Shown here in pieces: positions 4,772-22,458 of a stretch of 22,578 nucleotides of DNA. The notes beneath the pieces are model-generated. The model did not search any database and had not been told where the DNA came from. It worked only from the letters and a program-made list of their open reading frames with translations. Source of the DNA: a virus (lineage: Duplodnaviria > Heunggongvirae > Uroviricota > Caudoviricetes); IMG/VR virus record IMGVR_UViG_3300048577_000420, positions 1 to 22,578 of that record, one strand, 5' to 3'. Numbering within the stretch: the first letter of the stretch is position 1; each line of letters opens with the position of its first letter. The translations under genes were made by a program, and so were the position numbers.

Positions 4772-4779
4772 GTGGACTC

Positions 4780-6086: not shown

Positions 6087-6235
6087 GCGCTGCCCCCGTT
6101 CGCCTCGGCGAGGTGCGCGTCTCCGGCCAGGCGGGCCGCCTCCCGCGTGGGGAACGGGCCCTCGCGCCACGGGCAACGACAGCCGACGTCGACGCCACCG
6201 GACGGCAGGGTCACGGTGGCGGTCATGTGGATCAT
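6083..6235 (-). CDS. Small hypothetical protein (50 aa, MIHMTAT...GCRCPW...)
   Basis: Not in the ORF track. Fills the gap exactly, with TGATG overlap upstream and ATGA overlap downstream. Confidence 0.6.
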   Translation of the reverse strand: MIHMTATVTLPSGGVDVGCRCPWREGPFPTREAARLAGDAHLAEANGGSA

Positions 6236-6450
6236 CACTTCCAGTCCCTCCCGTTCTCCGGGACGACCCGGGTGCGCCGCAGGACGTTGACGGGACGCCG
6301 ACCCTTGGTGATGGTCCGGCGCTGGGCCGGGGCCATCCGCCGCTGGTCCGTCTGCGGCCGGCCGAGCTTCTCCGGCTCGCCGGCCTCCTTGCCGATCTCG
6401 ACGTACGAGGTCGACACGCGGGCCATGCTCATGTTGGTGACCTCGGTCAT
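6235..6450 (-). CDS. Small basic hypothetical protein (71 aa)
   Basis: ATGA overlap with the RuvB-like gene; coupled to the next ORF. Confidence 0.6.
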   Translation of the reverse strand: MTEVTNMSMARVSTSYVEIGKEAGEPEKLGRPQTDQRRMAPAQRRTITKGRRPVNVLRRTRVVPENGRDWK

Positions 6451-8020: not shown

Positions 8021-9003
8021 CAGATCTCCTTCCCGGCCGCGAACTCGCGCGCGAGCGCCGCGAGGGACTTCTTCGCCACGTCGGACGCTCCGGCGGTGCG
8101 GTCGAGGCTCTCATCGAGCAACTCGGAGTAGTGGGCGGTGCGCTCCATGATCGCCGAATACCGGTCGCGGAGGGCCTTGTACGTCTTGGGCGTAATGGCG
8201 GTGGTTCGGGCCTTCTGGAGATCCACCACGAGCTCGCTCAACGCGGCGTCATTGTCGTCCTGGAATGCCGCGAGGATGTGCTCTCTCTGATCGGCAAGAT
8301 CCACGAGGGGGATGAGGTCCACCTTGCATCCCTTCAGCGTGCCCACGGCCTCCGCGAACCGACGGAGCTCGTCCGCGTGGGCAATGGGCACGAAGTGCAC
8401 CGAGCTCTTCAGTGGGACCGACTGCAGCCGCACCCGGAGGTAAGACAGGATCATGGCACGGATGCGCGTGCCCTCCAGCGAGTTGAGGTAACGGTCGTAG
8501 TCGCGGCGCACGGATGCACCCAGACGGCGCAGGTGCTCCATCTCGCCGGGCTGGAGCTTGGCGTCGGACGGTGCGAACTGGAACCGGGCGCCGCTCTCGT
8601 CGACGATGCCGCCGCGACGCGGCGCGCGGTAGAGGCGCACCTCACCGGCGTACTCCCAGCCCAGGGCGCTGCGCGAGTCGACACGCAGCTCGCGCATGAT
8701 GACGCGCAGCGAGACCTCGGACGGGTTCGGCGCCGCGACCTCGCGGAACTGGACCCGCGCCTCGACGTCGGCCGCGATCTGGTACTTCCACTCGTCGTGG
8801 TTGCGGAGCGCCTTCTTGAACGCGTCCACCGATCGCGAGACCGGCGGGATCTGGCTCACGTCGAGCCGGCGCGCCTCGAACTCCTCGACCAGCCGCGCGC
8901 GGTCGTGCTCGGCGTCGGCGCCCAGCGTGAGCGCGACGTAGCCCAGCAGCGCATCCTCCGGAAGACGCCCCGACGCGTCGAGGTATGCCTTCAACTTGCT
9001 CAT
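8020..9003 (-). CDS. Hypothetical protein, DUF6744/DUF3150-like (327 aa)
   Basis: N-terminal LLGYVALT...IPPVSRSVDAFKKALR and later SSVHFVP recall the DUF6744/DUF3150 proteins that accompany AAA/vWA genes in mobile elements. Recognition only; the ORF itself is well supported (GGGGAGG SD). Confidence 0.6.
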   Translation of the reverse strand: MSKLKAYLDASGRLPEDALLGYVALTLGADAEHDRARLVEEFEARRLDVSQIPPVSRSVDAFKKALRNHDEWKYQIAADVEARVQFREVAAPNPSEVSLRVIMRELRVDSRSALGWEYAGEVRLYRAPRRGGIVDESGARFQFAPSDAKLQPGEMEHLRRLGASVRRDYDRYLNSLEGTRIRAMILSYLRVRLQSVPLKSSVHFVPIAHADELRRFAEAVGTLKGCKVDLIPLVDLADQREHILAAFQDDNDAALSELVVDLQKARTTAITPKTYKALRDRYSAIMERTAHYSELLDESLDRTAGASDVAKKSLAALAREFAAGKEI

Positions 9004-9023
9004 GGTCCTCCCCTCTCATGACG

Positions 9024-9053
9024 GAGGCCCGCCCCCCGAAAGGGACGGGCCTC
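9024..9053 (-). other. 13-bp RNA hairpin with UUCG tetraloop
   Basis: Minus transcript GAGGCCCGUCCCU-UUCG-GGGGGCGGGCCUC; the DNA-level mismatches are U.G pairs only on this strand. Confidence 0.7.
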
Positions 9054-9054
9054 G

Positions 9055-9078
9055 CGATTCGTGCGCTAGCAGGAAGCG
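9055..9078. promoter_or_regulatory. Palindromic operator-like motif, copy A
   Basis: CGATTCGTGC-GCTA-GCAGGAAGCG; imperfect dyad, 23/24 identical to 22206-22229. Confidence 0.7.
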
Positions 9079-10557
9079 TCAGGATTGACGCATGATGTCC
9101 CGAACTTGCTGGACATCGGTGAGGTCGGCGACCGTCCTCAAGTCGTCGGCGATCTGGGCGAGCACAGCGGGCATTCCGCCGTGCCCGGACGTGACATAGA
9201 TCCCGAAGCACTTCGCCGTGAGACGGCGCCGGGATTCCGTCCACTCGTCGATGAATGCCGGCACGGGCGCCTGGCCGTCGGTGATGAAGACGATGTCCGG
9301 CCGCGCCTTGTCCGACGCACGGATGAGGTCGAGCGCCCGCCTGAGCGGCTTGTCGAAGGACGTGCCGCCGTTCAGGAAGCCCTCCGCCATGTCGAGCACG
9401 TCGAGCTGGTTCACGCGGCCGGCCGGGAACGAGAACTCCCGGAGCCCCTCGTACTCGGACCCGAAGCCGATGTAGTGGAAGTCGCGCTTCTGCCGCCGCG
9501 CCTGGTCGAGCAGCGCGAGGGCGAGGCCCTTGGCCCACATCTCGCCCGGCCCGTCCATCGAGCCGGACTCGTCGGCCACCACGATGATCGGGCCGCGGCC
9601 CTCGCGCTCGCGACCACGCAGCCGCTTGATGAGCAGGCCGCCCTCGACGTACCGACGCCAGAAGTCGTCCTCCGTCTCGGGCGAGGCCAGGTTGATCAGC
9701 TCCTGGGTGGTGAGGCGCGTGAGGTCGTTGCCGAACTCGACGCCCACCGCCTCGTCGGCGGCGTCGGTCACCCGGCGCCGGTACTCGGCAGACGCCAGCT
9801 GGCGGAACGCGCCGATCAGCTGGGCGAACTGCCGGAGCTTCTCGCCGGAGAGCCGCTGGGCCAGCGCGGCGCGCTCCTTGAACGACAGCCGCTGGAGCGA
9901 GCCCGGATCGATGCCGTACTGCAGCGCCGTCTCGTTCTCCTGCTCCGCCTGCTCGGCGGCGTCGTTCAGCGACTGGCGCAGCCCGTTGCGCAGGCCCGCC
10001 GAGGTGGCCTCGGCCTCGGCCTGCAGCTGGTCGGACATCTCCTGCGCCTGCTGGGCCGCCTCGTCGGCCGCCTGCTGGAGGTTCGGATCGCCGGGCGCGC
10101 CGGCGGCCTGCTCCGCAGCGTCACGGGCCCGCTCGCGGGCCTGCTGGGCGGCCTGGGCCTGCTCGCGCAGCTCCTTGGCCCGCTCCAGGGCCGTGTGGAG
10201 CGGCTTCTTGAGCGAGAGCATCCCCATCGCCGACGCGTAGTTGTCCGCGACGGTGAAGTTCCGAAGACGCTGGAGCTCGGGCAGGGACGCCATGTCCTGC
10301 ACGATCTGCCGGTTGGGGATGTGCGTGGCGCGCATCTCGTCCCGGGTGCGGAGCTCGGGGTCGCCCTTGGCCAGGAGGTTGAAGACGTCCTGCGTGAAGT
10401 CCTCGACGTAGTCGTAGGTCTTGCGCAGCCCGCCGACCATCTCGTCGAGCGCGGTGGAGTCCTCGCGGACCTCGTCCCACATCGCCTTGTCGAAGCGGTC
10501 GAACGGCACCGCGTCGGTGTGCTCCTGCTCGGGGTCCATCCAGTCGAACACGGTCAT
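9079..10557 (-). CDS. vWA (MIDAS) domain protein, ViaA-like (492 aa)
   Basis: C-terminal IIVVADESGSM (DxSxS), GGTSFDKPL and DIVFITDG; helical Ala/Gln-rich middle; directly downstream of the MoxR-type ATPase. Confidence 0.9.
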   Translation of the reverse strand: MTVFDWMDPEQEHTDAVPFDRFDKAMWDEVREDSTALDEMVGGLRKTYDYVEDFTQDVFNLLAKGDPELRTRDEMRATHIPNRQIVQDMASLPELQRLRNFTVADNYASAMGMLSLKKPLHTALERAKELREQAQAAQQARERARDAAEQAAGAPGDPNLQQAADEAAQQAQEMSDQLQAEAEATSAGLRNGLRQSLNDAAEQAEQENETALQYGIDPGSLQRLSFKERAALAQRLSGEKLRQFAQLIGAFRQLASAEYRRRVTDAADEAVGVEFGNDLTRLTTQELINLASPETEDDFWRRYVEGGLLIKRLRGREREGRGPIIVVADESGSMDGPGEMWAKGLALALLDQARRQKRDFHYIGFGSEYEGLREFSFPAGRVNQLDVLDMAEGFLNGGTSFDKPLRRALDLIRASDKARPDIVFITDGQAPVPAFIDEWTESRRRLTAKCFGIYVTSGHGGMPAVLAQIADDLRTVADLTDVQQVRDIMRQS

Positions 10558-10572
10558 CGCCTCCCTCGGGGC

Positions 10573-11727
10573 TCAGTCCTCGATGCCGAGGTGCTTGATG
10601 CCCTCCGCCTTGATCTCCGCGGCCTGGGCCAGCAGCGTGTCGATGACGCGGGTGGGCCGGCCGTTCGCCTGGACCTTGGCCAGGAGCTTCTTGGCGGCCT
10701 TCTCGATCTTGTTGACCTTGCCCATCGCCTCGGGGATGTAGGCGAAGAGCTTGTCCTCCGCCTCGCCCTCCTTGGCCCGCATGGTGGCGCGGATCTCGGC
10801 GAGCTCGTCCGCCAGGCCGGCGGCCTCGTCGGCGTCCGGGGACGCCACGGCGAGGATCGTGCGCTCGACCTTGGCCTTCTGCTCCAGGTCCTCCCAGAGC
10901 GTGTAACGCAGCGCGTAGAGGTCCTCGACCTCCGCGACGGCACGGCCGGCGAGCCAGGCCTGCGCCCGCACGACCTTCATCGACTCGCGCCAGCGGCGGT
11001 CCGAGACCGTGATGCCGAGCTTGCGCAGGTCGCCGCGGATCCGCAGGACCCCGTCGAGGACGTCGTCGAGCAGCACCACCTTCTCGACCTCGCCGCACGC
11101 CACCACGAGGTCGTCGTAGCTGATCGTGGTCGTGGTGCTCGGCGCGGAGGCGCGCTCCATGAGGCCCTTGAAGTCCGCGTCCGAGGCGATGTAGTCGACG
11201 ACGCACCGGAGCAGCAGGCGGTCCCAGAGCGCGGCCTCGTCCTCGCTCTCGGAGGCCGGCAGCTCGTTGCTGGCGGTGAAGGCCGAATGGAGCGGGATGT
11301 CGATGGCCGAGCGCTTGCCGTTGACCTCGTGCTTGATCCGCTCGTTGAGCGCGGCGAGAAGGTCGTGGCCGAGGGTCGGGCTGGCCTTGCCGACCTCGTC
11401 GAGGAAGGCGAACTCGACCGCGGTGAGGTAGCCCTCGTCCTTGCGGCGGAACTCGCCCTGGTCGCGCAGGAGCGGCAGGTCGTACGGGCCGAGCACCGCG
11501 GAGTCGGGCCGGTTCTTGCTGAGCAGCTGCTCGAAGTAGCGCGCACCGTCGATGCGGTCGACGAAGGCGCGCACGAGGAGCGACTTGCCGGTGCCGGGCG
11601 GCCCCAGGGTGAAGCTGTGCTGGCGCGTGAGCGCGGCCAGGATCATGCAGTCGACGGCGTCGGCGCGCTCGTAGAAGCCCTCGTTGAGCTCGCTACGGAT
11701 TGCGGCGATCGCCTGAGCGGTGGTCAC
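10573..11727 (-). CDS. MoxR/RavA-type AAA+ ATPase (384 aa)
   Basis: GFYERADAV, Walker A GPPGTGKS, FLDEVGKAS, LLAALNER, ASNELP, ALWDRLLLR and SDRRW match the RavA subfamily. Confidence 0.9.
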   Translation of the reverse strand: MTTAQAIAAIRSELNEGFYERADAVDCMILAALTRQHSFTLGPPGTGKSLLVRAFVDRIDGARYFEQLLSKNRPDSAVLGPYDLPLLRDQGEFRRKDEGYLTAVEFAFLDEVGKASPTLGHDLLAALNERIKHEVNGKRSAIDIPLHSAFTASNELPASESEDEAALWDRLLLRCVVDYIASDADFKGLMERASAPSTTTTISYDDLVVACGEVEKVVLLDDVLDGVLRIRGDLRKLGITVSDRRWRESMKVVRAQAWLAGRAVAEVEDLYALRYTLWEDLEQKAKVERTILAVASPDADEAAGLADELAEIRATMRAKEGEAEDKLFAYIPEAMGKVNKIEKAAKKLLAKVQANGRPTRVIDTLLAQAAEIKAEGIKHLGIED

Positions 11728-11784
11728 GCGGGTTCTCCTCCTTCTGGGGACGGTTGACGTTGCGGTGGTCGATGGCGAGCGGCA

Positions 11785-11904
11785 TCAGAGGCCCAGCCGC
11801 GCGTCGCGGTAGCGCTCGTAGGCGTCGTCGGGGTCGGGCTCGTCGTCGTCCTCGCCCTCACGGGTGAGCCAGCGCTCCAGCTGGGCGTCGGTCGGCGAGC
11901 GCAT
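11785..11904 (-). CDS. Small acidic protein (39 aa, MRSPTDAQLERWL...)
   Basis: TGATG overlap with the upstream gene and GGAGG SD. Confidence 0.6.
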   Translation of the reverse strand: MRSPTDAQLERWLTREGEDDDEPDPDDAYERYRDARLGL

Positions 11905-12410
11905 CAGTCCTCCGTGGGGCCGACGGCGAGCACCGCGAACTGGGCCACGAGGATGACTTCCTCCCCGGGGCCGAGCGGCTGGCGGGCGACGCTCTCGGCG
12001 GCCCGAGCCATGACCCAGCCGGTCGCGCTCTCCTCCGAGCGCTCCGCGGGCTCGACGAAGGCGTGGTCCTTGATGTCGAGCTCCGGGAAGCCGCTCTGCT
12101 CGGGCTGGTCGGCGTGCTCGGCGCGGCAGGTGCCGCAAGCGGCGCACGGCTCGGAGGCGTTGATCTGCTCCAGCGTCATCGGGTAGTAGGTGTCCGGTCC
12201 GACGTCGGTGTACGGGGCGCCGGCGATGATGCTGAGCGGGCCCTCCGGGAAGCGCCCGCGGATCGCGATGATCGAGTTCGGCTTGCAGGTGCAGACCGTC
12301 GGCAGCAGCTCCGGGAAGTCGGCGGCGGCCGGCCAGTTGTGCAGCCCGCAGTCGCTCTTGTGCCCGCAGCTCTCGCACGACGCGGGGTGCTCGACCGTGT
12401 AGTCGCGCAT
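11904..12410 (-). CDS. Cys/His-rich, probably metal-binding hypothetical protein (168 aa)
   Basis: CESCGHKSDCGLH, CTC and CAACGTC; GAGGAG SD. Confidence 0.75.
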   Translation of the reverse strand: MRDYTVEHPASCESCGHKSDCGLHNWPAAADFPELLPTVCTCKPNSIIAIRGRFPEGPLSIIAGAPYTDVGPDTYYPMTLEQINASEPCAACGTCRAEHADQPEQSGFPELDIKDHAFVEPAERSEESATGWVMARAAESVARQPLGPGEEVILVAQFAVLAVGPTED

Positions 12411-12420
12411 GTCTCTCCTC

Positions 12421-13320
12421 TCAGTAGACGGGCAGCAGCGCCAGCTGGTCAGCGGTCGCCGCGGTGATGGGCAGGTCGGTGCGCTGCCCGCGGTACACGG
12501 GGAAGCGCAGGGTGTTCTCGCGCGTGCGGTTGAGCGCGTCGACCTCGATCGCGAACATCTCGCCGGCGTCGAGGCGCCCCTGCAGGACGGCCTCCTCGCG
12601 GGCGCTCCAGCCGGTGCCGACCTTGCCGATCGGGATCGGCCCGTCCTCGCCGAGGAGCGCCAGCAGGATGGCGCCGAAGTCGCGCCGCTGGCCCTGCTCG
12701 TAGCCCGCGGCGATCGCCGTGAGCCGCTGGACGGCCTTGAACTTGACCCAGGAGGAGGCGCGCTCCCCCGGCAGGTAGAAGCTCTTGCGGAGCTTGACGA
12801 TGATCCCCTCGCCGCCGGCGGCCACGACCTCGTTCCAGAGGCCGAGGATGTCCCCGGACTGGCGCACGGGCCGCACGATCCTGCGGTTGCCGATGACCCC
12901 GCGCATGAGGGTGAGCCGGGTGTGCAGCGGCTGGGTCATGAGCGACTGGCCGCCGGAGCGGAGGAAGTCGAACGCCTTGAAGTAGCAGGGGTTCGCCTTC
13001 GCGGCCGCGGCGTACGCGCCGGTCTGCTTGTCACGCGTCGCCACGGTGCTGAAGAGCCCGTCTCGCGCGACGATCTCGCCGTCCAGGACGACGTCGCCGG
13101 CGGGCAGGCGGACGCGAGCGATCTCGGGGAAGCGCGCGGTGATGTCGATCATGCTCCGGTTCACGAGCCGGACCCGGTCGCCCTCCTGGTAGAGGATCGC
13201 GCGGATGCCGTCGACCTTCTCCTGGGCGATCCACTCGCCGCGGCCGGCGAGGTCGGTGAGGAGGATGGGCTGGCGGTTGCTGGCGCCCGAACTGGGCACC
13301 GCGAGCATCGGACGGATCAT
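12421..13320 (-). CDS. Minimal ATP-dependent DNA ligase (299 aa)
   Basis: Start re-called to ATG 13320. PMLA, EKVDG (motif I KxDG), LDGEI, AFD, EGIIVK, WVKFK and an OB-fold tail LRFPVY; no LigD polymerase or phosphoesterase domain. Confidence 0.92.
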   Translation of the reverse strand: MIRPMLAVPSSGASNRQPILLTDLAGRGEWIAQEKVDGIRAILYQEGDRVRLVNRSMIDITARFPEIARVRLPAGDVVLDGEIVARDGLFSTVATRDKQTGAYAAAAKANPCYFKAFDFLRSGGQSLMTQPLHTRLTLMRGVIGNRRIVRPVRQSGDILGLWNEVVAAGGEGIIVKLRKSFYLPGERASSWVKFKAVQRLTAIAAGYEQGQRRDFGAILLALLGEDGPIPIGKVGTGWSAREEAVLQGRLDAGEMFAIEVDALNRTRENTLRFPVYRGQRTDLPITAATADQLALLPVY

Positions 13321-13331
13321 GAGGCCCCCTC

Positions 13332-14081
13332 TCAACGGAAGATGTCGTGGGTGTGGATCGTGGGGTCGATGCCGGGCCGCTTGAGGCGGGTCACGTGCAC
13401 CCCGTCTCGCTGGCTGACGGCGAAGGTGCGGACGGCTGAAGGGCTCCAGTGCGGGTGCCGTGCGAGCTGCTCCGCGTGGGCCTCGCGCCACGCCGCGCAC
13501 CAGGCCTCCGCCTCCTCGCGGCTCAGGTGGGCTGACCACACGTGCTCGTCCCTGCGCATGGGGTTGGTCTCGGTGACGCACCACGTGCCCGGCGGTAGGA
13601 CGGCCTCCTCCTGGAGGGCGTCGAGGTAGAGGTAGGCCCGGAGCCGGGCGCCAGGCTCGGGGTGCGTGAACAGCGCAGGCAGCGCCGCCAGCATGGCCGC
13701 GGGGTCGGGCATGACCTCCTCGGTGTCCCGAGGGCTCATCGGCGGTGCGGTGTGGTGGCCGTTCTGCGCCAGGAAGGGCTTCAGCTCGGGGAGGTTGGCG
13801 GGCGGCCACGCCGCCGGCCGCTCCTCGTCCAGGTGGACGTACGGCACGACGTGGGCGATCCGGTACTCGCCGTCCTCATCCCAGTAGGCCAGCTGGATGC
13901 CCTCGGGAGTCGTGCTCATCGAGGCCATCGGGTCGCCGCTCTGGTTGTCGTGGATGATGACGTCGTCGCCCTCCTCCTCCCCATTGGGGAGGCGGAGGGC
14001 GAACCAGAAGTCGCCGCTGAGCGAGAAGGCGTGCACACCCGGCTGCGGCTCGTCGGCCTCCAGGTCCTCCTGGGTCGTCAC
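13332..14081 (-). CDS. Hypothetical protein with acidic N-terminal region (249 aa)
   Basis: GTG start overlapping the Ku stop (GTGA); sits between ku and the ligase gene. Confidence 0.75.
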   Translation of the reverse strand: MTTQEDLEADEPQPGVHAFSLSGDFWFALRLPNGEEEGDDVIIHDNQSGDPMASMSTTPEGIQLAYWDEDGEYRIAHVVPYVHLDEERPAAWPPANLPELKPFLAQNGHHTAPPMSPRDTEEVMPDPAAMLAALPALFTHPEPGARLRAYLYLDALQEEAVLPPGTWCVTETNPMRRDEHVWSAHLSREEAEAWCAAWREAHAEQLARHPHWSPSAVRTFAVSQRDGVHVTRLKRPGIDPTIHTHDIFR

Positions 14082-14917
14082 GCGACGGCCGCCTTCTTGC
14101 GCGACCGCGGCGCCTTCTTCGTCGCCGCGCCGGCGCCCGCGACCTGCGCGGCGAGCTTCGCCATGAGGTCGGCGACGTTGGCGGCCGGCGTCGCGACGGT
14201 CGCGCCCTCGGTGGCGATCACCTCGCGGCCGGCCACGATCTCGGCCATGCGCTTCTCGAAGGTAGAGGCGTAGGTCTCGGGGTCGTAGTCGGTGATCTGC
14301 CCGGGGAGCGCGAGTATCTGCTCGGCGAGCTGGACGAGCGCCTCGGGCACGTCGGCGTCGATCGCCGGCGCCTCGCGGACCTCGCCGGCACGCGTCCGCT
14401 CCTGCAGGACCAGCGCGCCGCCGTACACGCGCACCTGGAACTGGGAGGCGGAGGATCGGGGCGTCCACTGGGTCATGAACGCCAGGTCGGGGTGGGCCTC
14501 GATGAGCGCCCGGAGCGTGCCGTAGGTCGCCTCGTGGCCCTTCTCGGGCGCGAGGAAGTACATCTTCTCCCCCACGCTCGTGAGGACCTCGACCTGGGGC
14601 GCCGGGTGGGCGGAGACGTCGGCCTTCTTCTTGAACTTCTCGGCGTCGGCGTTCGCCTCCGCCAGGTCCTCCGCGGTCAGGAGGACGAGTCCGCCCTCGA
14701 CCGGCCGAGCCTTCTTGAGCTGCTGGGCGGGCACCTCGCCGCACGTGCCGCAGACCCGCGGCTGGCTGATGCGCTTGGGCTCGTGGCTCCCGAGCCCGTC
14801 GCAGACCATGACGTTGCCCGTGCTGCCGGTCTTCTCCAGCGCCGAGGTCATGCTGACCGAGGTCGAGATGACCCCGAAGGACAGGGCCACGCCCGAGGCG
14901 ATGCTGCGTGCTGCCAT
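14078..14917 (-). CDS. ku: Ku-like DNA end-binding protein (279 aa)
   Basis: MAARSIASGVALSFGVISTSV (compare Ku MR.IW.G.ISFGLV.IPV), RISQPRVCGTCGEV, VLLTAEDL, YFLAP, and a basic Lys/Ala tail KKAPRSRKKAAVA. Divergent. Confidence 0.85.
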   Translation of the reverse strand: MAARSIASGVALSFGVISTSVSMTSALEKTGSTGNVMVCDGLGSHEPKRISQPRVCGTCGEVPAQQLKKARPVEGGLVLLTAEDLAEANADAEKFKKKADVSAHPAPQVEVLTSVGEKMYFLAPEKGHEATYGTLRALIEAHPDLAFMTQWTPRSSASQFQVRVYGGALVLQERTRAGEVREAPAIDADVPEALVQLAEQILALPGQITDYDPETYASTFEKRMAEIVAGREVIATEGATVATPAANVADLMAKLAAQVAGAGAATKKAPRSRKKAAVA

Positions 14918-14966
14918 GCTGATCTCCCCTCTCTCACCTATGGCCGGCGGTGAGCTGATTCGGTAG

Positions 14967-15107
14967 TCACCTCCTGGTGAGGACCACCAGGAGCGGGATG
15001 AGGACGGCGGCGATGGCCGCGCCGATGACCGCGCCCGCCACGAGGGCTGACACGGTGGATGCGGTGAGGTCTGGTTCTGGCTCGGCGTCGTCGAGTTCGA
15101 CGATCAC
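14967..15107 (-). CDS. Small membrane protein (46 aa)
   Basis: GTGA overlap start; single hydrophobic helix followed by TRR. Confidence 0.65.
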   Translation of the reverse strand: MIVELDDAEPEPDLTASTVSALVAGAVIGAAIAAVLIPLLVVLTRR

Positions 15108-15370
15108 GCCGCCGGGATGCCGTAGAGCATCAGGTCGTTGACGGGTCCGTCGGTGCCCGTAGGCGGCCACAGGCCGGTCTCGTCCACCACGGGCAGGCGG
15201 GCGTCGTTCTCGACGACCAGGTAGGGCCTGCTCCCGTCGTGCGGGTAGTGCACGTAGGCGTGGACCTCGTCGTCGGCGCCGGGGCCCGTGACGATGGTCA
15301 CGAAGTCGTGCCGGTCGGCCGGGTCCTCGTAGTCCGCCGGGTCGCCGGCCTTGACGACGATGTGCGTCAC
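15104..15370 (-). CDS. Acidic hypothetical protein (88 aa)
   Basis: GTGA overlaps on both sides; GC3 bias. Confidence 0.75.
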   Translation of the reverse strand: MTHIVVKAGDPADYEDPADRHDFVTIVTGPGADDEVHAYVHYPHDGSRPYLVVENDARLPVVDETGLWPPTGTDGPVNDLMLYGIPAA

Positions 15371-15960
15371 GCGGCGGCCTCGAAGAGGGCCGAGACGGCC
15401 GCCTCCAGCGCGGAGTAGTCGGCCTCGACGAGCGGGATGTCGCCGGTCGGCTCACCGCCGGCGAGGTAGTGCTCCTCCGTGGGGTACGCCGCGACGGCGA
15501 ACTTGAGGGTCTTGACCGCACCGCGGTAGTCGGGCGCGAACGGCCCGATCGGGTCGCCGTCGCTCACGGCCACCACGCGGCCGTCCGGGGCCGCGGTCCA
15601 GACCACGACGGTTCCCCCGGCCGTGGCGAGCATCGCCCGCTTGTCCGCGTACTCGGCGTGGTCGAGCCAGAGCGCGTCGATGAGGCAGTTGCCGATCTGG
15701 GCGAGCCTGAACTCGTCGCGGTCGTCCTCGATGAACTCGGAGGACTCGAAGCTCTGCATCGGACCGATGACGGCGTCCTTGACGGCCTGCGGCATGTCGG
15801 AGGCGGCGACGTGCTCCATCTCCTCGCGCCACTCCGAGAGCGGGTAGCCAGCGCCGGGGTCGACGTCGTAGTGCTCGGCGTCCACCACCTCGCCGTCGAT
15901 GAAGACGGTGGCGGTGGTGGACGAGTCGGGATCGCGGACGGTGACGACGTAGAGGCTCAC
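15367..15960 (-). CDS. Acidic hypothetical protein (197 aa)
   Basis: Start re-called to GTG 15960 (GGAGG SD, GTGA overlap). Confidence 0.75.
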   Translation of the reverse strand: MSLYVVTVRDPDSSTTATVFIDGEVVDAEHYDVDPGAGYPLSEWREEMEHVAASDMPQAVKDAVIGPMQSFESSEFIEDDRDEFRLAQIGNCLIDALWLDHAEYADKRAMLATAGGTVVVWTAAPDGRVVAVSDGDPIGPFAPDYRGAVKTLKFAVAAYPTEEHYLAGGEPTGDIPLVEADYSALEAAVSALFEAAA

Positions 15961-16415
15961 GCGGCGACCTCCTTGTCCGAGCGCGACCGCCAGCCCTCCG
16001 AGGAGATGTCGACCCGCACGTCGCACCACGGCTCGGCGTTCATCCACGCGACCGCCAGGTCGCTGATGTCCTTGAAGCGCTCGGGCGCGCCCGGCCAGTC
16101 CTCGTCCGCGTCGCGGCAGGCGCTGTAGAGCTGCGACGGGGCCGGGTCGCCCTCGCGCACCTCGAAGTCGCCGTCGTGGGCGTAGTCGCCGACGAAGACG
16201 ACGCGGTCGCCGCCCCAGCGGCCGATGAAGCCGCTCGTGTCGGCGAAGTCCCCGCCCCCGCGGCTCTCGCCGGTGCCGGCCACGAGGAGTGCGAGGAGGT
16301 CGCCGGTGCTCCAGGCGCACCCCACCTGCTCCGCCTGCTTCAGGCCGAGGCCGAGCCGGTGCGGGTGGAGGTACTCCTTCCTGTCGAGGTTGGCGATGAC
16401 GTGGTACTGGCCCAT
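15957..16415 (-). CDS. Conserved phage-type hypothetical protein (152 aa)
   Basis: MGQY..IANLD.KEYL.P..LG.GLK...GRWGGDRVVFVGDY pattern recalled from phage hypotheticals; GAGGAG SD. Confidence 0.8.
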   Translation of the reverse strand: MGQYHVIANLDRKEYLHPHRLGLGLKQAEQVGCAWSTGDLLALLVAGTGESRGGGDFADTSGFIGRWGGDRVVFVGDYAHDGDFEVREGDPAPSQLYSACRDADEDWPGAPERFKDISDLAVAWMNAEPWCDVRVDISSEGWRSRSDKEVAA

Positions 16416-16428
16416 CTCGGGACTCCTC

Positions 16429-16608
16429 TCAGGCGGGGACCAGCGCGGGCTGCCGGGTTGCCAGCAGGGCGGCGGTCAGGTCGTGGATGTTGACGGTCGC
16501 GACCGTCCAGGTGTTCGCGTTGTGGATCGCGACCTCGACGGTGTCCGGCACCTCGCCGGCGATCACCTCGATGTCGGACTCGTCGTCAGCGAGGTCTCGG
16601 ATCTTCAT
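16429..16608 (-). CDS. Small acidic protein (59 aa)
   Basis: ATGA overlap start at 16608 with GGAGG SD. Confidence 0.7.
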   Translation of the reverse strand: MKIRDLADDESDIEVIAGEVPDTVEVAIHNANTWTVATVNIHDLTAALLATRQPALVPA

Positions 16609-17027
16609 GCGGCCTCCAGGGAGTAGGCGGGGTCGTGGGTGCCGTCGTCCTCGGCGATGGCCCGGTTGACGGCGTTGACGGCCTCGGACCAGGTCTCGAA
16701 GAAGGCTCCGTCGACGGCCGCGGCAGGGTTGTCCCCACGGGGGTACGGAGCCGCGTGGACGTGCCACGGGCGCCACTCGGGGCCGGGGTCGCCGCTCGGG
16801 TCGAAGACGATGTGCCAGCGCCGATGGGGCGCGAGCCCGTGACGGCGCAGCACGCGCATGATGAACTCGCGCGCGGCCGGCCAGTCGTCCAGGTCGTGCG
16901 TCGTGCCGTTCATTGTCATGAGGTCCCGGGCGAGCGCCGCGTCGCAGCACTGGTCCTGGGTGAGGTCGAAGTTGAGGACCGGGTTCGCCAGCTCGTCGAG
17001 CCGGTTGATCGTGTCGAGGAACGTCAC
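16605..17027 (-). CDS. Hypothetical protein (140 aa)
   Basis: Start re-called to GTG 17027 behind GGGGAG. Confidence 0.7.
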   Translation of the reverse strand: MTFLDTINRLDELANPVLNFDLTQDQCCDAALARDLMTMNGTTHDLDDWPAAREFIMRVLRRHGLAPHRRWHIVFDPSGDPGPEWRPWHVHAAPYPRGDNPAAAVDGAFFETWSEAVNAVNRAIAEDDGTHDPAYSLEAA

Positions 17028-17035
17028 GGCGGCGG

Positions 17036-17371
17036 CTACTCCCCGAGGAGCGCGCCCCGGACGTACGCGCGGGCCTTCTCCAGGACCACGTCGGCCGGGA
17101 TCGAGTGGTCGCCCTCGGGTACCCACGGGCCGTGCGTGTCGTCCGGGTCGTCGTCGCCGTAGGCGTGACCGGCCAGGAACTGCGCGGCGGCCTCGACGTC
17201 CTGGGACGCGACCGCCATGAGCGTCGCCATCGTGTCGGCCTCGGAGCACGTCATGTAGCTGCCGACGTCGTGGCCCAGCTCGGCGCTGCCGAACGTGTCG
17301 GCGAAGGCGGTGGCGGCCGACTGGATGAGCGCGAGGCGGGCCTCGGCGGGGGTCGTCGTGGAGGTCGTCAC
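17036..17371 (-). CDS. Acidic hypothetical protein (111 aa)
   Basis: GTG 17371 with AAAGGAG SD, which overlaps operator copy C. Confidence 0.75.
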   Translation of the reverse strand: MTTSTTTPAEARLALIQSAATAFADTFGSAELGHDVGSYMTCSEADTMATLMAVASQDVEAAAQFLAGHAYGDDDPDDTHGPWVPEGDHSIPADVVLEKARAYVRGALLGE

Positions 17372-17379
17372 GGTGATGC

Positions 17380-17403
17380 TCCTTTCTGCTGGCGCAGGAA
17401 TCG
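17380..17403. promoter_or_regulatory. Palindromic operator-like motif, copy C
   Basis: The reverse complement of 17381-17405 matches 9053-9077 at 21/25; one half-site is GCAGGAATCG. Confidence 0.55.
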
Positions 17404-17416
17404 CGCGGGGGATGAC

Positions 17417-17452
17417 TCGGCCCCGCTGCGCGGGAGGTCGCAGCGGGGCCGA
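17417..17452 (-). other. Perfect 14-bp hairpin downstream of the methyltransferase gene (terminator or processing site)
   Basis: TCGGCCCCGCTGCG / CGCAGCGGGGCCGA with an 8-nt loop. Confidence 0.65.
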
Positions 17453-17471
17453 AGGATGGGGAGGTCGGGGC

Positions 17472-18494
17472 TCAGGAAGCGGTGACGAGGTCGCCACCGA
17501 CGTACGGGATCGCCCGGTCGACCGCGTCGATGCGGCGGCCCAGCCAGGCGGCCGTGCCGGTGTGGATCGCGTTGCCGAGCGCCGTCCACCGCTGGCTGTC
17601 GGGCATCCCCTCGGTCCAGCCGTCCGGGAAGCCCTGAAGGCGCTCCCACTCGGTGAACGTGAGGGTGCGGAGGCGCCCGTGCTGGGCGATGAGGTGCGTC
17701 TGGCGGAGGGCGTTGCCGGAGTCGTTGCCAGTCAGCGTGTTGGTGTGCGTGGCCGGGACCCAGGTCTCGTAGCCGCCGGCAGAGAGCGCGGCGCGAGCTC
17801 GGGCGGACTTGCGCCAGATCACGGCTCCAGCAGGTCCGACAGGGCCTGGAGCAGGGCGGGGTCCGCCTTCGAGCCCGCCGAAGCGACGCGCGGCAGCAGC
17901 TTGCGCGCCTGCTCCGTCGTCACCCAGAACCGCCCATGCGGGTCGGGGGTCTCCTCCACGATGGCCGACCACGAGAACTCGACGGCGTCGCTGGGCTGTA
18001 CCGAGGTGTCCCCCGTCCACCACCCGGTAGGCCCACCCATACCCGAGGTCTTCCAGTCCACCCGCGACGGCAGCGAAGTCGTGCCCGGTCCGGCGGGGAC
18101 TCGTGAGAAGCCCTTCGGGGTTCTCGATGACGACCCATCGGGGTCGGGTCTCGTCGACCAGTCGGAGGTGCTCTTCGAGGAGTCGGTGGAACTCCCAGAA
18201 GAGGCCGGAGCGAGTGCCAGCGAGCCCAGCACGGTTGGGGGCGGCGATGCTGGTGTCCTGGCAGGGGAAGCCTCCGCAGAGGAGGTGGGGTCGCCCGAGG
18301 GCGGTCGCCTTGACGTCACGGATGTCTCCTTCCAGGGGGGTCTCGGGGAAGTGCCGGCGGAGCACCGCCTGGGCGGCCGGGTTGATCTCGACCATGAGGT
18401 TGTTGTGCCAGTTCAGCGGGGCGAAGCCGACCTCGAAGCCGCCGATCCCGGTGAAGGTCGAGGCCCACTCGAAGGGCTCTCGGCGCGCGTCCAC
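17472..18494 (-). CDS. C5 cytosine DNA methyltransferase, large polypeptide (340 aa)
   Basis: Start re-called to GTG 18494 (GGAGG SD). Motif I FTGIGG, IV GGFPCQ, SGLF, VI ENP, VIII QRRRRV, IX-like ERLQGFPD, X LGNA. Confidence 0.92.
   Translation of the reverse strand: MDARREPFEWASTFTGIGGFEVGFAPLNWHNNLMVEINPAAQAVLRRHFPETPLEGDIRDVKATALGRPHLLCGGFPCQDTSIAAPNRAGLAGTRSGLFWEFHRLLEEHLRLVDETRPRWVVIENPEGLLTSPRRTGHDFAAVAGGLEDLGYGWAYRVVDGGHLGTAQRRRRVLVVGHRGGDPRPAWAVLGDDGAGAQAAAARRFGGLEGGPRPAPGPVGPAGAVIWRKSARARAALSAGGYETWVPATHTNTLTGNDSGNALRQTHLIAQHGRLRTLTFTEWERLQGFPDGWTEGMPDSQRWTALGNAIHTGTAAWLGRRIDAVDRAIPYVGGDLVTAS
17819..18319 (-). CDS. Nested alternative-frame ORF, candidate small (beta) subunit of the methyltransferase (166 aa)
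   Basis: GTG preceded by AAGGAG at 6-nt spacing; C-terminal WKTSGM...WWT...QPS...FSWSAIVEE...RFWVT...LLQAL resembles the beta polypeptides of M.EcoHK31I-type enzymes. Confidence 0.7.
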   Translation of the reverse strand: MTSRRPPSGDPTSSAEASPARTPASPPPTVLGSLALAPASSGSSTDSSKSTSDWSTRPDPDGSSSRTPKGFSRVPAGPGTTSLPSRVDWKTSGMGGPTGWWTGDTSVQPSDAVEFSWSAIVEETPDPHGRFWVTTEQARKLLPRVASAGSKADPALLQALSDLLEP

Positions 18495-18505
18495 GGTGCC
18501 TCCTC

Positions 18506-19066
18506 TCAGGGGTGCAGGAAGGGGTCCAGGAGGGCCTGGACCTGGGCCACGACGCTGACGGGCGCCGTGTAGCGACGGGTGAGGAGCATCTGGCGGCCGC
18601 GGAGCACGACGCCCGTGGGGACGCCCCACTCGACGGTGACGCGCTCCTCGGCGTCGATCGCGCCGATCTGGCTGGCGAACGCGGCGACCTGGGCCTCGAC
18701 GTCGGGGTTGGGCTCGTCCATCGACACACGCGGCTCGTGCTCGTCGAGGGCGCGGTCCCAGTGGTCGTACCGCGTCCACGTCATGCCGAGGCCGATGTCG
18801 TAGAGGCCCTCGGCGTCCGGCTCGATGCGGCTCGGGGTCTCCGGGTACTCCGGGCTCGTGACGACGAGGGTTTCGCCGTCGAAGACCCACGTGTCGAGGG
18901 TCACGGCGTACGGGCTCGCCGCCGTCAGGACGGCGATCTGCTCGATGACGCGCCGGTTGGTCATCCACTCCGCCCAGCCGTTCCAGGCGCGGAGGAAGTA
19001 CCCCTCGAACGCCGGGTCGGGCTGGTCGTCGCCGGTGAACCAGTCACCGGTGAACCAGGTCCTCAC
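18506..19066 (-). CDS. Hypothetical protein (186 aa)
   Basis: GTGA overlap start at 19066 with GGAGG SD; FEGYFLRAWNGWA motif. Confidence 0.75.
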   Translation of the reverse strand: MRTWFTGDWFTGDDQPDPAFEGYFLRAWNGWAEWMTNRRVIEQIAVLTAASPYAVTLDTWVFDGETLVVTSPEYPETPSRIEPDAEGLYDIGLGMTWTRYDHWDRALDEHEPRVSMDEPNPDVEAQVAAFASQIGAIDAEERVTVEWGVPTGVVLRGRQMLLTRRYTAPVSVVAQVQALLDPFLHP

Positions 19067-19422
19067 TCGGACACCTCCCACTCGAAGAAGAAGCCCGAGG
19101 CGTGGAGCGTGTCGGGCGCGGTCGAGTCCTTGGACCCGTTGTCGCAGACGTACTGGTCGAGGTCGCCCTCCTGGCCGTCGTGCTCGGCGGCGTGCACGAG
19201 GCGTCGCGGCACGGTGGCCGTCCACGTCTCGGTGACCTCGGCCGTGTACGTGCGGCGGAAGGTGATCGCGACCTCGCCGCAGGCGTGGCCCTGCGCGACC
19301 GAGACGAGGACGTCCAGGTCGTCGCCGGGCTCGATGTCGCAGACGACCTCGCCGCACTCGGCGCACGTCAGCTCCAGGTCGCGCTTCAGGTCGTCGTCGG
19401 ACTGCTTGGCCTCGAAGGTCAC
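19063..19422 (-). CDS. Acidic hypothetical protein with CxxC (119 aa)
   Basis: GTGA overlap start at 19422 with AAGGAGG SD; CAECGEVVC...HAC. Confidence 0.75.
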   Translation of the reverse strand: MTFEAKQSDDDLKRDLELTCAECGEVVCDIEPGDDLDVLVSVAQGHACGEVAITFRRTYTAEVTETWTATVPRRLVHAAEHDGQEGDLDQYVCDNGSKDSTAPDTLHASGFFFEWEVSE

Positions 19423-20213
19423 GCCACCTCCTTCGTTGCGTAGGGAGAGAAGGCGTCCCGGGCGGCCTCGGCCGCCCACTTGTGGCCGACGAAGCCCCAG
19501 CAGTCGTCGGTGACCTCCCAGTCCTCGCGGTCGAAGTTGAGCGTGCGCGTGGAAGTCTCCGGCTCGGCGCCGGGACGGACGACGGTCTCGGTCGTGGTCG
19601 TTCTGCCGCTGCGCTGCACGCGCTCCTCGATGCGGTAGCCCCACACGTCGCCGGTCAGGTAGGCGTTGTAGGTCCTGACCTCGTCGGCCAGGCACTCCTC
19701 GACCCGATCGAGTGGGGTCCCGCATACCTCGCGGGTGCGCGCGGTGTCGAAGATGAAGCCGACGTAGGAGGTGTCCCAGCCGCCGGGGTCGCAGGCGAAG
19801 TGGTCGCGGCCACCCTGGCGCCTGCGGAAGTCCCTGTCCTGGACCATGTCCCGGCCGCCGCTGATGCTGATGCCGGAGTGGTCGAGCAAGTACAGCGGCA
19901 GGACCGCGGTCGCGCCGTGCTTGCGTACCAGGTGCTTGACGATCGCCTCGTTCAGCGCGGAGAGCGAGGGCATGAAGTCCTCGACCTGGCGGATGAAGTC
20001 GGTCAGGTCCTCGTGCTCGGGCGGGGCGGTGGTGGTCCGCGTGCGCCAGTGGTACTGCTCGTCGCCGAGGGTGTGGTCCCGGTACTTCACCCACATCACG
20101 CCGAGGTTGCAGTCGGTGTCGTGGCGAGGGTCGCAGCCGTCCGTGTCCTCCATCGGGAGAAGGGTGAGGCGGTGGGTGTCCGTCTCGGCGACGAGCTCCT
20201 GGTAGTCGCTCAC
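19419..20213 (-). CDS. Conserved phage/MGE-type hypothetical protein (264 aa)
   Basis: LPLYLLDHSGISIS, WDTSYVGFI, EVRTYNAYLTGDVWGY and DDCWGF match a hypothetical family I recall from phages and ICEs; GTGA overlap start. Confidence 0.8.
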   Translation of the reverse strand: MSDYQELVAETDTHRLTLLPMEDTDGCDPRHDTDCNLGVMWVKYRDHTLGDEQYHWRTRTTTAPPEHEDLTDFIRQVEDFMPSLSALNEAIVKHLVRKHGATAVLPLYLLDHSGISISGGRDMVQDRDFRRRQGGRDHFACDPGGWDTSYVGFIFDTARTREVCGTPLDRVEECLADEVRTYNAYLTGDVWGYRIEERVQRSGRTTTTETVVRPGAEPETSTRTLNFDREDWEVTDDCWGFVGHKWAAEAARDAFSPYATKEVA

Positions 20214-20701
20214 GCGGTCACCTGCCGGAGCCAGGCTCGGAGGCGGTACATGCTCGTGGCGTCGACGGCCCACTCGTCCGGGTAGGCGCCGTGGAGGAGG
20301 AGGCCGTCCGCGCCCGCGAGGATCGTCTCGACGAAGTAGTCGGAGACGAACTGCCCCGGCTGGTTCGGCCGGCCGATGTGGCGGGTGTCGAAGAAGCACA
20401 CGGTCAGCCGCGGGTCGACGGCCGTGAAGGTCTCGATGCGGGCGACGAAGGGGACGCCGTTGGCGGCCGTGAAGCCGTAGGTCGCGCCCACGGCGGGCGT
20501 CTTGCGCGGGCGGATGCGGTCTCGCTCGAACGCCTCGACGACCCGTGCCGCGTCCTGCTGGACGACGTCGTTCGGGTACGTGGGGACCTGCTCGCCCTCC
20601 CAGAGGTTGATCTCCCCCAGGTCCGGGTCGAAGGTCACGCCTCCGTCGTCGGAGACGGTGATGGCGACGGGCAGGCCGAGCAGGTAGGTGCGCTCGGCCA
20701 T
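20210..20701 (-). CDS. Hypothetical protein (163 aa)
   Basis: TGATG overlap start, GTGA overlap end. Confidence 0.75.
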   Translation of the reverse strand: MAERTYLLGLPVAITVSDDGGVTFDPDLGEINLWEGEQVPTYPNDVVQQDAARVVEAFERDRIRPRKTPAVGATYGFTAANGVPFVARIETFTAVDPRLTVCFFDTRHIGRPNQPGQFVSDYFVETILAGADGLLLHGAYPDEWAVDATSMYRLRAWLRQVTA

Positions 20702-20859
20702 CAGTCGACGTCCCCGCTCATACCCCAGGCGCGGGACTCGCCCGACTGGACGGAGGTGCGTGCCCGGCCGTCGCCACGGGTGCGGGCGATCCGCTCCGCG
20801 CTGGCGGCGTTGACGATGCTGGCGTCCTCGGTCCTGCCGAGGATCTCGGTCAGGGTCAT
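20701..20859 (-). CDS. Small hypothetical protein (52 aa, MTLTEILGRTED...)
   Basis: Not in the ORF track. GAGAGGAG SD; fills the gap with a TGATG overlap. Confidence 0.6.
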   Translation of the reverse strand: MTLTEILGRTEDASIVNAASAERIARTRGDGRARTSVQSGESRAWGMSGDVD

Positions 20860-20873
20860 GGGTGTGGCTCCTC

Positions 20874-22103
20874 TCAGGCCGCGAGCGGCACGGTGTTCTT
20901 GACGAGGACGTGGAAGTCGCGGCCGAGCGTCAGCCGACGGTGGTCCGGGCGACGGCCCTCCGGGACGTGCCGCAGGCAGCCCCGGGCGAGGGTCGTGCCG
21001 TCCGGGAGGATGGCGACCTCGGTCCCCTGGTGGTTGGTCCTGAAGATGTCGCCCCGCTTCATGAAGGTGGCGCCGGCCTTCGCCAGGGCACGCTTCGTCA
21101 CGGTCGGGACGGGGATGGCGAAGATGTCGCCCTGGCGCTTGACCTCGCGGCCCTGCGCCTCGGCCAGCCGGACGGTCTCCGGCTTGAGCGCCGCGTACGC
21201 CTCCTCCACCGTGGTGGGCTTGGCGCCCGGCGGCAGCTCGCAGAAGAAGTAGGACGGGCGGGGCTCGTTCTGGTCGAAGCCGGACAGGAAGAACGCCCGA
21301 CGGCGACGGCGGATGCGACCGTCGCAGCGGTCCCCGTGGCGGGGGCAGGAAGAGCCCACCCAGGAGTTGCGGTAGGCGTCCTCTGCCTCGCGGTAGGCGG
21401 CCGCGTCGGCACTGTCGAACCAGGCGCGCTCGGCCTCCGCGAAGTCACTCCACGTGGCGTGCTCACCGCGCCGCCAGCGCGGGCGGCTCTCGGGCCAGGT
21501 CGGCTTGGGCAGGGCGTACGTGGCGGGCTGGAACGACGTGCACCGCACGGTGTACGCGACCTCGGCGCTGATGAGGGACTCGCCGAGCCAGTGGCGCTGC
21601 GTGGTCCAGCGGTACGTCTGGCCGTCGAAGACGATCTCGCCGGTCTGCTTGGGGTACCCGTCGAGAAGGCGGACCTCCCACCCCGGTTGCTCGCGAAGGT
21701 CGACGAACATCCAGCCCAGCGGGGCGTCCTCGCGGCTCGTGGACTCGTGGCGCGTCGAGACGTAGCGGTCGCGGGTCACGTGGACGATGCGGACCGTACG
21801 GCGCTCGATCCCAGCGGCGTTGAGGGCCTCGTGCGGGATCGTGACGGTGTTCTGGTCGCGAAGGGCGGACCGGACCTCCTGCTGGTGCCTGGAGGTCGAG
21901 ACGGAGTACCGGTCACCGTTGAGCAGGAAGCCGTGCACGGTGCCGTTCGGGTTGCGCAGAGGGCGTGCCAGCTCGAAGTGGAAGCCGTAGGAGTAGATCT
22001 GGTCGCCGTCGACCGGCATCCGCTCGGCACGCAGGTTGGGCCGATCGGTCAGGCCCAGGCAGCGGTCGCGCCAGCGGCGCGCCACCTGCTCGTACGTGGT
22101 CAT
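20874..22103 (-). CDS. Phage-type hypothetical protein (409 aa)
   Basis: Start re-called to ATG 22103 (AGGAGGAG SD). IYSYG.HF, YSVSTSRHQ and a C-terminal RQGDIFAIP...H...DH...KNTVP pattern seen in phage proteins. Confidence 0.8.
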   Translation of the reverse strand: MTTYEQVARRWRDRCLGLTDRPNLRAERMPVDGDQIYSYGFHFELARPLRNPNGTVHGFLLNGDRYSVSTSRHQQEVRSALRDQNTVTIPHEALNAAGIERRTVRIVHVTRDRYVSTRHESTSREDAPLGWMFVDLREQPGWEVRLLDGYPKQTGEIVFDGQTYRWTTQRHWLGESLISAEVAYTVRCTSFQPATYALPKPTWPESRPRWRRGEHATWSDFAEAERAWFDSADAAAYREAEDAYRNSWVGSSCPRHGDRCDGRIRRRRRAFFLSGFDQNEPRPSYFFCELPPGAKPTTVEEAYAALKPETVRLAEAQGREVKRQGDIFAIPVPTVTKRALAKAGATFMKRGDIFRTNHQGTEVAILPDGTTLARGCLRHVPEGRRPDHRRLTLGRDFHVLVKNTVPLAA

Positions 22104-22129
22104 GCGATCTCCTCCTGAGAGACGCGGAA

Positions 22130-22155
22130 GGGCGCCGCGCCGATGCGCTGCGCCC
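22130..22155 (-). other. GC-rich hairpin upstream of an RBS
   Basis: GGGCGCAGCGC-ATCG-GCGCGGCGCCC, 10 of 11 positions paired. Confidence 0.5.
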
Positions 22156-22205
22156 TCACCTGTGGTGCTGGGTCTGAAGGTGTGCCGACCGACACTCGTG
22201 GCCGA

Positions 22206-22229
22206 CGATTCGTGCGGTAGCAGGAAGCG
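22206..22229. promoter_or_regulatory. Palindromic operator-like motif, copy B
   Basis: CGATTCGTGC-GGTA-GCAGGAAGCG; differs from copy A only in the central spacer. Confidence 0.7.
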
Positions 22230-22230
22230 C

Positions 22231-22458
22231 TCAGGGCGCCACGTACGCCGACGCGCGAAGCACGACGTAGGCGATGACGACGAGGGCGGGCAGGGCGACC
22301 ACGAGGCCACCCATGAAGGCGTTCACGAGCGCGAGCACGACGCGGCGGACCGTCCACCCGCGGACGGGCTGGGCCGCCGGGCGGGGCTTGCGGTGCTTGG
22401 GCCGCCCGGGCTCGGCGAGGCGCACGATGTCGCGCCAAGCGAGGTCGAGGTCCGTCAC
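22231..22458 (-). CDS. Small membrane protein (75 aa)
   Basis: GTGA overlap start; basic N-terminal region then a long hydrophobic segment. Confidence 0.7.
   Translation of the reverse strand: MTDLDLAWRDIVRLAEPGRPKHRKPRPAAQPVRGWTVRRVVLALVNAFMGGLVVALPALVVIAYVVLRASAYVAP

Follow-up and report, generated by a model that had tools for sequence, protein, structure and literature searches.

The Streptomyces phage phiC31 carries many conserved inverted repeats (CIRs) of about 17 bp, which lie in intergenic DNA or near promoters and are bound by the c repressor, silencing the genome. In Cluster O mycobacteriophages, a 17-bp dyad, TGTTCGG-N3-CCGAACA, is found in tens of copies with no orientation bias relative to transcription; its arms are invariant, a third of the sites lie in genes and many are intergenic, and its binder and function are not known (PMC4351075). 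The stoperators of Cluster A phages (L5 gp71 family) are asymmetric sites of 13 bp that follow the direction of transcription, and the protein that binds them is a monomer with two DNA-binding domains (PMC9283540). More than 20 such repressor sites occupy short intergenic gaps, some of them by stop or start codons; one protein has been proposed to block both initiation and elongation, and site specificity diverges between related Cluster A phages (PMC9283540). The subject here is a dyad repeated throughout the 86,578-bp IMG/VR virus record IMGVR_UViG_3300048577_000420, a phage called G000 here, whose first 22,578 nt (the window) hold three of the sites, named A, B and C. All three probably belong to a set of about 20 operators at which a single dimeric, sequence-specific regulator, that of a temperate actinobacterial phage, would silence the prophage globally.

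Sites A and B (Table 1) are identical at 23 of 24 positions and differ only in the 4-nt spacer, as the original prediction had stated, and no match of this kind arose in 100 shuffles. Site C was rightly described as lying in the opposite orientation and overlapping a ribosome-binding site, but its similarity to A had been given as 21/25 and was recounted, with C read on the minus strand, as 19/24 (16 of 20 specified positions). The three sites are not expected by chance. By a codon-usage gene call, all genes from 4.8 to 24.9 kb are on the minus strand. Site A adjoins the TGA of the vWA-domain gene with a gap of 0 nt, and B begins 1 nt past the TGA of a 75-codon open reading frame (22231-22458), so that the predicted start of both copies 0-1 nt after a stop codon holds. 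On its other side, A stands 51 nt ahead of the start of the DUF6744 gene, with a 12-bp guanine–cytosine (GC)-rich hairpin and then a ribosome-binding site in between, while B stands 102 nt ahead of the start of the 409-aa gene. The 111-codon gene has its AAAGGAG ribosome-binding site 8 nt ahead of its GTG; site C overlaps this element, and the outer arm of C, GCAGAAAGGA, is at the same time that ribosome-binding site. The half-site claimed over the methyltransferase stop is also there, as a lone 9-mer without a partner arm, which may be due to chance or be a relic. The module around A (window 6447-11727, minus strand) comprises MoxR AAA+, vWA, DUF6744, an unknown gene and RuvB-like AAA+; it is kept in two related phages, G001 and G004, and site A is inserted within it in G000 only.

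Three sites over 13 kb, the scope first proposed, proved too narrow, since about 20 sites are spread over 86.5 kb. A relaxed scan was followed by a symmetric 28-nt position weight matrix (PWM) built from 16 copies, which finds 20 sites in G000 at 14.5-33 bits, clearly apart from a background of at most 11 bits; second-order Markov simulations give about 0.1 expected hits per genome. The consensus is CGAWWC[C/G]TGC-N4-GCA[G/C]GWWTCG, in which T-G-C and G-C-A are invariant and the centre is mostly GCTA or TAGC. Its core is a 7-4-7 dyad, TTC[C/G]TGC-N4-GCA[G/C]GAA, flanked by CGA and TCG, and measures 24-28 bp in total with the conserved shoulders. Between 13 and 17 of the 20 sites fall in the 7-9% of G000 DNA that is intergenic (both ranges set by start-codon calls). 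A site is present in 15 of the 31 gaps of at least 50 nt. The family thus has about 20 members and an intergenic bias.

Early, late, integrase and accessory units each carry sites. Two gaps hold a pair: the divergent gap between a helix-turn-helix (HTH) gene and a helicase gene (35568 and 35850), and the place where the late and early regions meet, with sites at 67683 and 67710 separated by 27 bp. One site lies inside the tape-measure gene. The PWM scan found none in positions 1-9054, where AIPR and other add-on genes are located, and the next site after B is at 23765, shortly beyond the end of the window. A lone half-site, CGTTTCCTGC, is also seen at 35812-35821, 38 nt upstream of the site at 35850.

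The family is shared with related phages. G001 came to light through exact-word matches in IMG/VR. This phage of 83,979 bp, with direct terminal repeats and 65.8% GC, is syntenic with G000 and shows about 65-77% nucleotide identity in genes. Its 17 sites have a cleaner consensus, CGCGATTCCTGC-TAGC-GCAGGAATCGCG, and many occupy gaps orthologous to G000 gaps though the remaining gap sequence is unalignable. No orthologues of A, B and C were found in G001, where the left genome arm is poorly conserved. Seven sites are present in G002, a 34-kb fragment with an 81% identical terminase. In two more distant relatives, L213 and L217 (terminase 44-45% identical), no dyad family was recognisable in the DNA examined.

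A fourth phage, G004 (80.9 kb, terminase 66% identical), carries a single site of this TGC type and 14 copies of TTT[C/G]CGC-N4-GCG[C/G]AAA. Of these copies, 13 are intergenic, and both the 7-4-7 layout and the GCTA/TAGC centre recur in them. At least nine of these CGC-type sites are positionally orthologous to G000 sites, including the double site with its 27-bp separation. They stand ahead of orthologues of the sigma gene, the 240-aa/terminase operon and the capsid, tail, primase and integrase genes, as well as in the divergent gap and, as the double site, before the early promoter. That an entire operator set keeps its positions while its arm sequence changes is predicted by a trans-acting factor whose specificity differs between lineages, and the half-site change at orthologous positions in the sister lineage would be as expected if the regulator were encoded by the element. 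The single TGC-type site of G004 (71697-71720) precedes the orthologue of the 409-aa gene and is thus the counterpart of site B; its presence could reflect module exchange between phages or dual specificity.

The restriction of the motif to the element and its relatives was supported in silico with a strict form, WWCSTGC-KMKM-GCASGWW. This form occurs five times in G000 and four times in G001, about 50 per Mb; in 401 sampled genomes of Actinomycetota, a rough control in place of the host's own chromosome, its density is about 0.05 per Mb, with one or two copies in 57 of the genomes. A broader pattern scan of bacterial and viral contigs with ATTCCTGC-N4-GCAGGAAT did include G001 among its viral matches but was dominated by an unrelated, directional hairpin repeat, GTC-ATTCCTGC-GNRA-GCAGGAAT-CCAG, which has the same arms as the phage dyad together with GNRA loops and oriented flanks. 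The repeat, which confounds pattern searches for the phage dyad, was found in viral contigs L047, L065, L068, L035, L075, L050 and L069 and, in 22 copies, in the 1.8-Mb Actinomycetota genome G005.

Comparison of the arms of 44 sites from three phages bears on whether the dyads are read as DNA or fold as RNA. Arm complementarity is 6.86/10 within sites and 6.89/10 between sites (permutation fraction 0.61). A typical site combines a near-consensus arm (1.1 mismatches) with a degenerate one (2.8 mismatches). At the W-W positions, a change in one arm (T,A) was seen 9-10 times and a change in both (A,A) once, and at the S positions too a change in one arm is almost never compensated. The GCTA centre also flips between orthologous sites (G000 26110 versus G001 23263; 38410 versus 33719), and GCTA and TAGC both occur within a single direction of transcription. 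With no excess of pairing within sites and a centre that flips, a protein-read DNA site is favoured over an RNA hairpin. That the arms vary independently, without compensatory change, is strong evidence that a dimer reads the site as DNA, in keeping with the symmetric, dimer-bound site originally proposed. The W-W shoulders, which are TT or AA, suggest shape readout.

If the sites are so read, a dimer would sit on two 7-bp inverted arms, TTC[C/G]TGC, around a 4-bp centre with a preference for GCTA or TAGC, with shoulders rich in A/T and a CG at either end. From one arm centre to the other is about 10 bp, roughly one helical turn, which would place an HTH dimer in two successive major grooves. 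The sites would mark the boundaries of transcription units, and the bound protein would silence the prophage globally: by promoter occlusion where a site overlaps or abuts a promoter, and by hindering the elongating polymerase or ribosome loading where a site lies just after a stop codon, as at A and B, or over a ribosome-binding site, as at C. We infer that a protein binds the sites, that the phage encodes it and that it represses rather than activates.

The positions of the sites relative to promoters and genes are varied. In a four-phage alignment of the early junction, the proximal site ends exactly 10 nt ahead of the -35 element of a conserved CTTGCG-N-TAGAGT promoter, and the pair as a whole is upstream of the -35, its two sites centred near -56 and -83. 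At G001 32425, a -10-like TAGTGT (TANNNT) comes immediately after the site, and at the integrase gene of both G000 and G001 a -10-like hexamer lies 40 nt downstream of the preceding site. The dyad covers the ribosome-binding site at the primase gene as it does at C, and it touches the stop codon at 38410 as at A and B. Overall, -10-like elements and start codons are found anywhere from 0 to more than 100 nt away from the sites. This positional freedom, together with the spread over early, late and accessory units, would fit a global repressor or roadblock better than an activator. The early promoter itself drives a structured non-coding leader of about 170 nt that closes with a terminator, a stem-loop with a T-tract (promoter and leader together, G000 67741-67920); the leader is far better conserved across the four phages than the flanking genes and has no Rfam match.

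Three phage proteins were examined as candidate binders (Table 1). The gene for HTH-250, beside the two-site divergent gap, is present in all four phages, and the recognition helices of HTH-250 differ. The G000 protein is 32% identical to that of G004, which has the other motif, and 22% identical to those of G001 and G002, which share its own. HTH-194 has a predicted recognition helix that reads MNPG[T/S/N] in the TGC-type G000, G001, G002 and L223 and MNRGN in the CGC-type lineage, a covariation that rests on a single evolutionary event. Its structural model is confident for the HTH domain only, and its PDB profile matches, to HTH domains of the LacI family and C.AhdI, are weak. The place of its gene between the 240-aa gene and the terminase is kept in more distant relatives as well, which hints at a role in packaging. 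The 85-aa leftward protein encoded next to the double site has no Pfam, PHROG, PDB or Atlas match, and its AlphaFold mean pLDDT (predicted local distance difference test) is 62.

It can be proposed, tentatively and with considerable doubt, that HTH-194 binds the dyad and that its helix change from MNPG to MNRGN re-specified the operators from TGC to CGC at the at least nine orthologous positions; where a site lies within an operon, as A does, this symmetric dimer would then be a roadblock that works in either orientation, a symmetric counterpart of the stoperator. If true, this would be a natural case of concerted re-specification of a regulator and its operators.

Other explanations of the dyads differ in what they ask of the sequence. 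The palindromes might act as RNA or single-stranded DNA hairpins, whether to terminate transcription, to be processed or to serve as antiterminator targets: any perfect copy could form a stem of 10-12 bp closed by a 4-nt loop, some of the sites, several in number, do lie in transcribed gaps, after stop codons or over a ribosome-binding site, and the GNRA repeat, a widespread hairpin in unrelated viral contigs and bacterial genomes, has the same arms. The dyads themselves have GCTA or TAGC loops rather than GNRA, no T-tract and no Rfam match, and their orientation relative to transcription is not kept even at orthologous sites. The predicted folds next to A and C are dominated by separate GC-rich hairpins that are independent of the dyads. 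The one at A has as its sole mismatch a G-U pair that forms only in the minus-strand transcript, and is kept at this junction in G004 and, with a T-tract, in G001; the gap that holds A has a predicted RNA fold of -40 kcal/mol. On the pairing test and the lack of T-tracts and Rfam matches, an RNA hairpin or terminator was rejected as the identity of the dyads, and the hairpin explanation as a whole is highly improbable. A phage-encoded activator or timing factor, working for example with the phage sigma factor to switch units on, could use the same sites, and at the conserved early promoter both stand upstream of the -35, the usual position for an activator rather than a classical repressor. 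The phage also encodes a sigma factor (26446-27189) and a WhiB-like protein, and with no canonical promoters predicted at A, B and C, unusual promoters in need of help are conceivable. Activators, however, require a fixed geometry, which the range of distances given above does not offer, and sites on a ribosome-binding site, straight after stop codons and within the tape-measure gene fit them poorly. The presence of sites at early, late, integrase and accessory units also suits global silencing more than timed activation, and an activator is on balance unlikely. A promoter motif of the phage sigma factor was not supported either: the motif is symmetric, has no fixed distance to any -10-like element, and is present in G001, where sigma region 4 is degenerate.

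A protein of the host, either a transcription factor or a nucleoid protein, might bind the sites instead, with the G004 variant reflecting a different host. The GC content of the four phages spans 65.8-70.7%, so their hosts may differ, and G000 also has host-type LexA boxes, which makes host control plausible; no binder was found among the phage proteins. Yet the strict form never exceeds two copies in any of the sampled genomes, the motif matches no actinobacterial operator to our knowledge, and the one old-type site beside 14 new-type sites in G004 is as expected from mosaic exchange between phages with different regulators. A host factor seems quite unlikely on these grounds. The place of HTH-194, whose helix tracks the motif, between the 240-aa protein and the large terminase in all relatives, distant ones included, could point away from transcription altogether, to packaging recognition, partition or condensation, recombination hot spots or, given the C5-methyltransferase encoded by the phage, a methylation target. 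Twenty dispersed sites confined to operon-start gaps are unlike the pattern of pac, cos or parS, and the methyltransferase is missing from G001 and G004, both of which have the motif family; a non-transcriptional role is accordingly very improbable.

Several points nonetheless weigh against operators of a phage-encoded global repressor. The original prediction expected an HTH repressor; no binder emerged from the three candidates, HTH-250 was rejected because its relatedness does not follow motif type, and HTH-194, the only HTH protein whose helix does follow it, is encoded between packaging genes. No canonical sigma-70 promoter is predicted beside A, B or C, which leaves their link to initiation putative, and a place upstream of a terminator-like hairpin, as at A, is odd for a promoter operator. 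Sites also stand ahead of the integrase gene and of a small leftward gene at the early-region junction, and not all genes touched by sites need be silent in a lysogen. The roughness of the chromosomal control belongs here too. Should the sites be operators of one regulator, they would map the transcription units of an uncultured 80-87-kb actinophage lineage and give a handle on the maintenance of lysogeny in it. More useful still is the sister lineage, which, with the same architecture and positions and a changed half-site, would form with it a defined pair for studying an operator-wide shift in immunity specificity.

Table 1. Dyad sites, adjacent features and candidate binders in G000; positions within the window and in the full record share one numbering.
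Feature	Position	Strand	Description
Site A	9055-9078	strandless	CGATTCGTGCGCTAGCAGGAAGCG; dyad CGATTCGTGC-GCTA-GCAGGAAGCG; 32.3 bits on PWM
Site B	22206-22229	strandless	CGATTCGTGCGGTAGCAGGAAGCG; dyad CGATTCGTGC-GGTA-GCAGGAAGCG; 32.2 bits on PWM
Site C	17380-17403	strandless	Weaker dyad; minus-strand reading CGATTCCTGCGCCAGCAGAAAGGA; 24.4 bits on PWM
Lone 9-mer CAGGAAGCG	17473-17481	strandless	Third occurrence; covers stop of C5-methyltransferase gene
Hairpin at A	9024-9053	-	GC-rich, 12 bp; between site A and ribosome-binding site of 8020-9003
Hairpin at C	17419-17450	-	GC-rich, terminator-like; between methyltransferase stop and C
vWA-domain gene	9079-10557	-	Upstream of A; in MoxR-vWA-DUF6744-RuvB-like module
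DUF6744 gene	8020-9003	-	Downstream of A
111-codon gene	17036-17371	-	Ribosome-binding site overlaps C
C5 cytosine DNA methyltransferase gene	17472-18494	-	Upstream of C
409-aa gene	20874-22103	-	phrog_29643, function not assigned; downstream of B
HTH-250	34731-35483	-	Beside two-site divergent gap; in all four phages
HTH-194	39197-39781		Xre/LacI-like, 194 aa; between conserved 240-aa protein and large terminase; in all lineages
85-aa leftward gene	67310-67567		Next to double site; conserved

Judged by its gene content, G000 (70.7% GC, a single virus record) is a temperate siphovirus-like actinophage. It encodes a large terminase, a portal-like protein, a 1741-aa protein, tail proteins and an endolysin, and also a primase-helicase, a Sak4-like protein, a PD-(D/E)XK nuclease, Ku and an ATP-dependent ligase. 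The MoxR-vWA module, an Lsr2-like protein, the WhiB-like protein and the sigma factor are encoded as well. The far end carries the gene for a serine integrase, and the near end, where GC is low, an AIPR abortive-infection gene. The record was probably cut out of a bacterial contig, and a protein 99% identical to one of G000 is recorded on a contig of 440,969 bp. No close cultured relative of G000 was found, the best terminase match being 38.7% identical, and its large terminase had no match in the 401 sampled Actinomycetota genomes.

Other genes of the window stand apart from the dyads. The AIPR-family gene (652-2466, minus strand) lies beside an HNH gene (2804-3124) at the end of the contig, where the GC content is about 60%, and is probably an add-on defence gene of the prophage. 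A gene at 5463-6086 (minus strand) encodes a DUF2637 membrane domain fused to a C-terminal HTH (phrog_733, 'excisionase') and is not kept in the relatives. The genes for the ATP-dependent DNA ligase (12421-13320, minus strand) and Ku (14078-14917, minus strand) are both kept in G001 and G004. Such a phage-borne Ku/ligase end-joining pair is also found in mycobacteriophages Corndog and Omega.

Set beside the known systems, the G000 dyads are of one kind with the phiC31 CIRs and the Cluster O dyads. They resemble the LexA box, TCGAAC-N4-GTTCGA, in being a dyad with a 4-nt spacer in an actinobacterial setting, and differ from it in arm sequence. The LexA box is thereby excluded as their identity, and the original view that the motif does not match LexA stands. 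GAAC-N4-GTTC occurs in G000 only at three other, intergenic places, as boxes CGAAC-N4-GTTCGAT at 35914-35925, 38442-38453 and 48240-48251. All three resemble LexA boxes of a host, with a dyad site upstream of each and a start codon 18-35 nt further on, and there are none in G001, G002 and G004.

The likeness to mycobacteriophage stoperators that had been suggested holds for distribution only, that is, for many copies in short intergenic gaps. Stoperators are asymmetric, oriented and bound by a monomer (PMC9283540), whereas the G000 sites are symmetric 7-4-7 dyads with both arms conserved and no fixed orientation, and would thus imply a dimer. No gp71-like annotation turned up in Pfam and PHROG scans of the phage proteins, in which no direct comparison was made. 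The dyads of Cluster O phages are similar in having 7-bp inverted arms around a short variable centre, a genome-wide spread, a frequent intergenic location and no bias in orientation. Their arms differ from the TTC[C/G]TGC of G000, and their spacer is of 3 rather than 4 nt. Cluster O phages are also not known as temperate, whereas G000 has a serine integrase. The Ku homologue of G000 adds a likeness to a Cluster O phage; Corndog encodes one. The CIRs of phiC31 are, like the G000 sites, a multi-copy inverted repeat in the intergenic DNA of a temperate actinophage, as the serine integrase would make G000. General scans of the roughly 80 G000 proteins, which included no direct comparison, brought no homologue of the phiC31 c repressor to notice. 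The G000 sites, with 7-4-7 arms and shoulders, are longer, at 24-28 bp, and probably differ from the CIRs in sequence. Dispersed, multi-copy operators are an already established principle in temperate actinophages, and the sites described here would extend that principle rather than represent a new mechanism.

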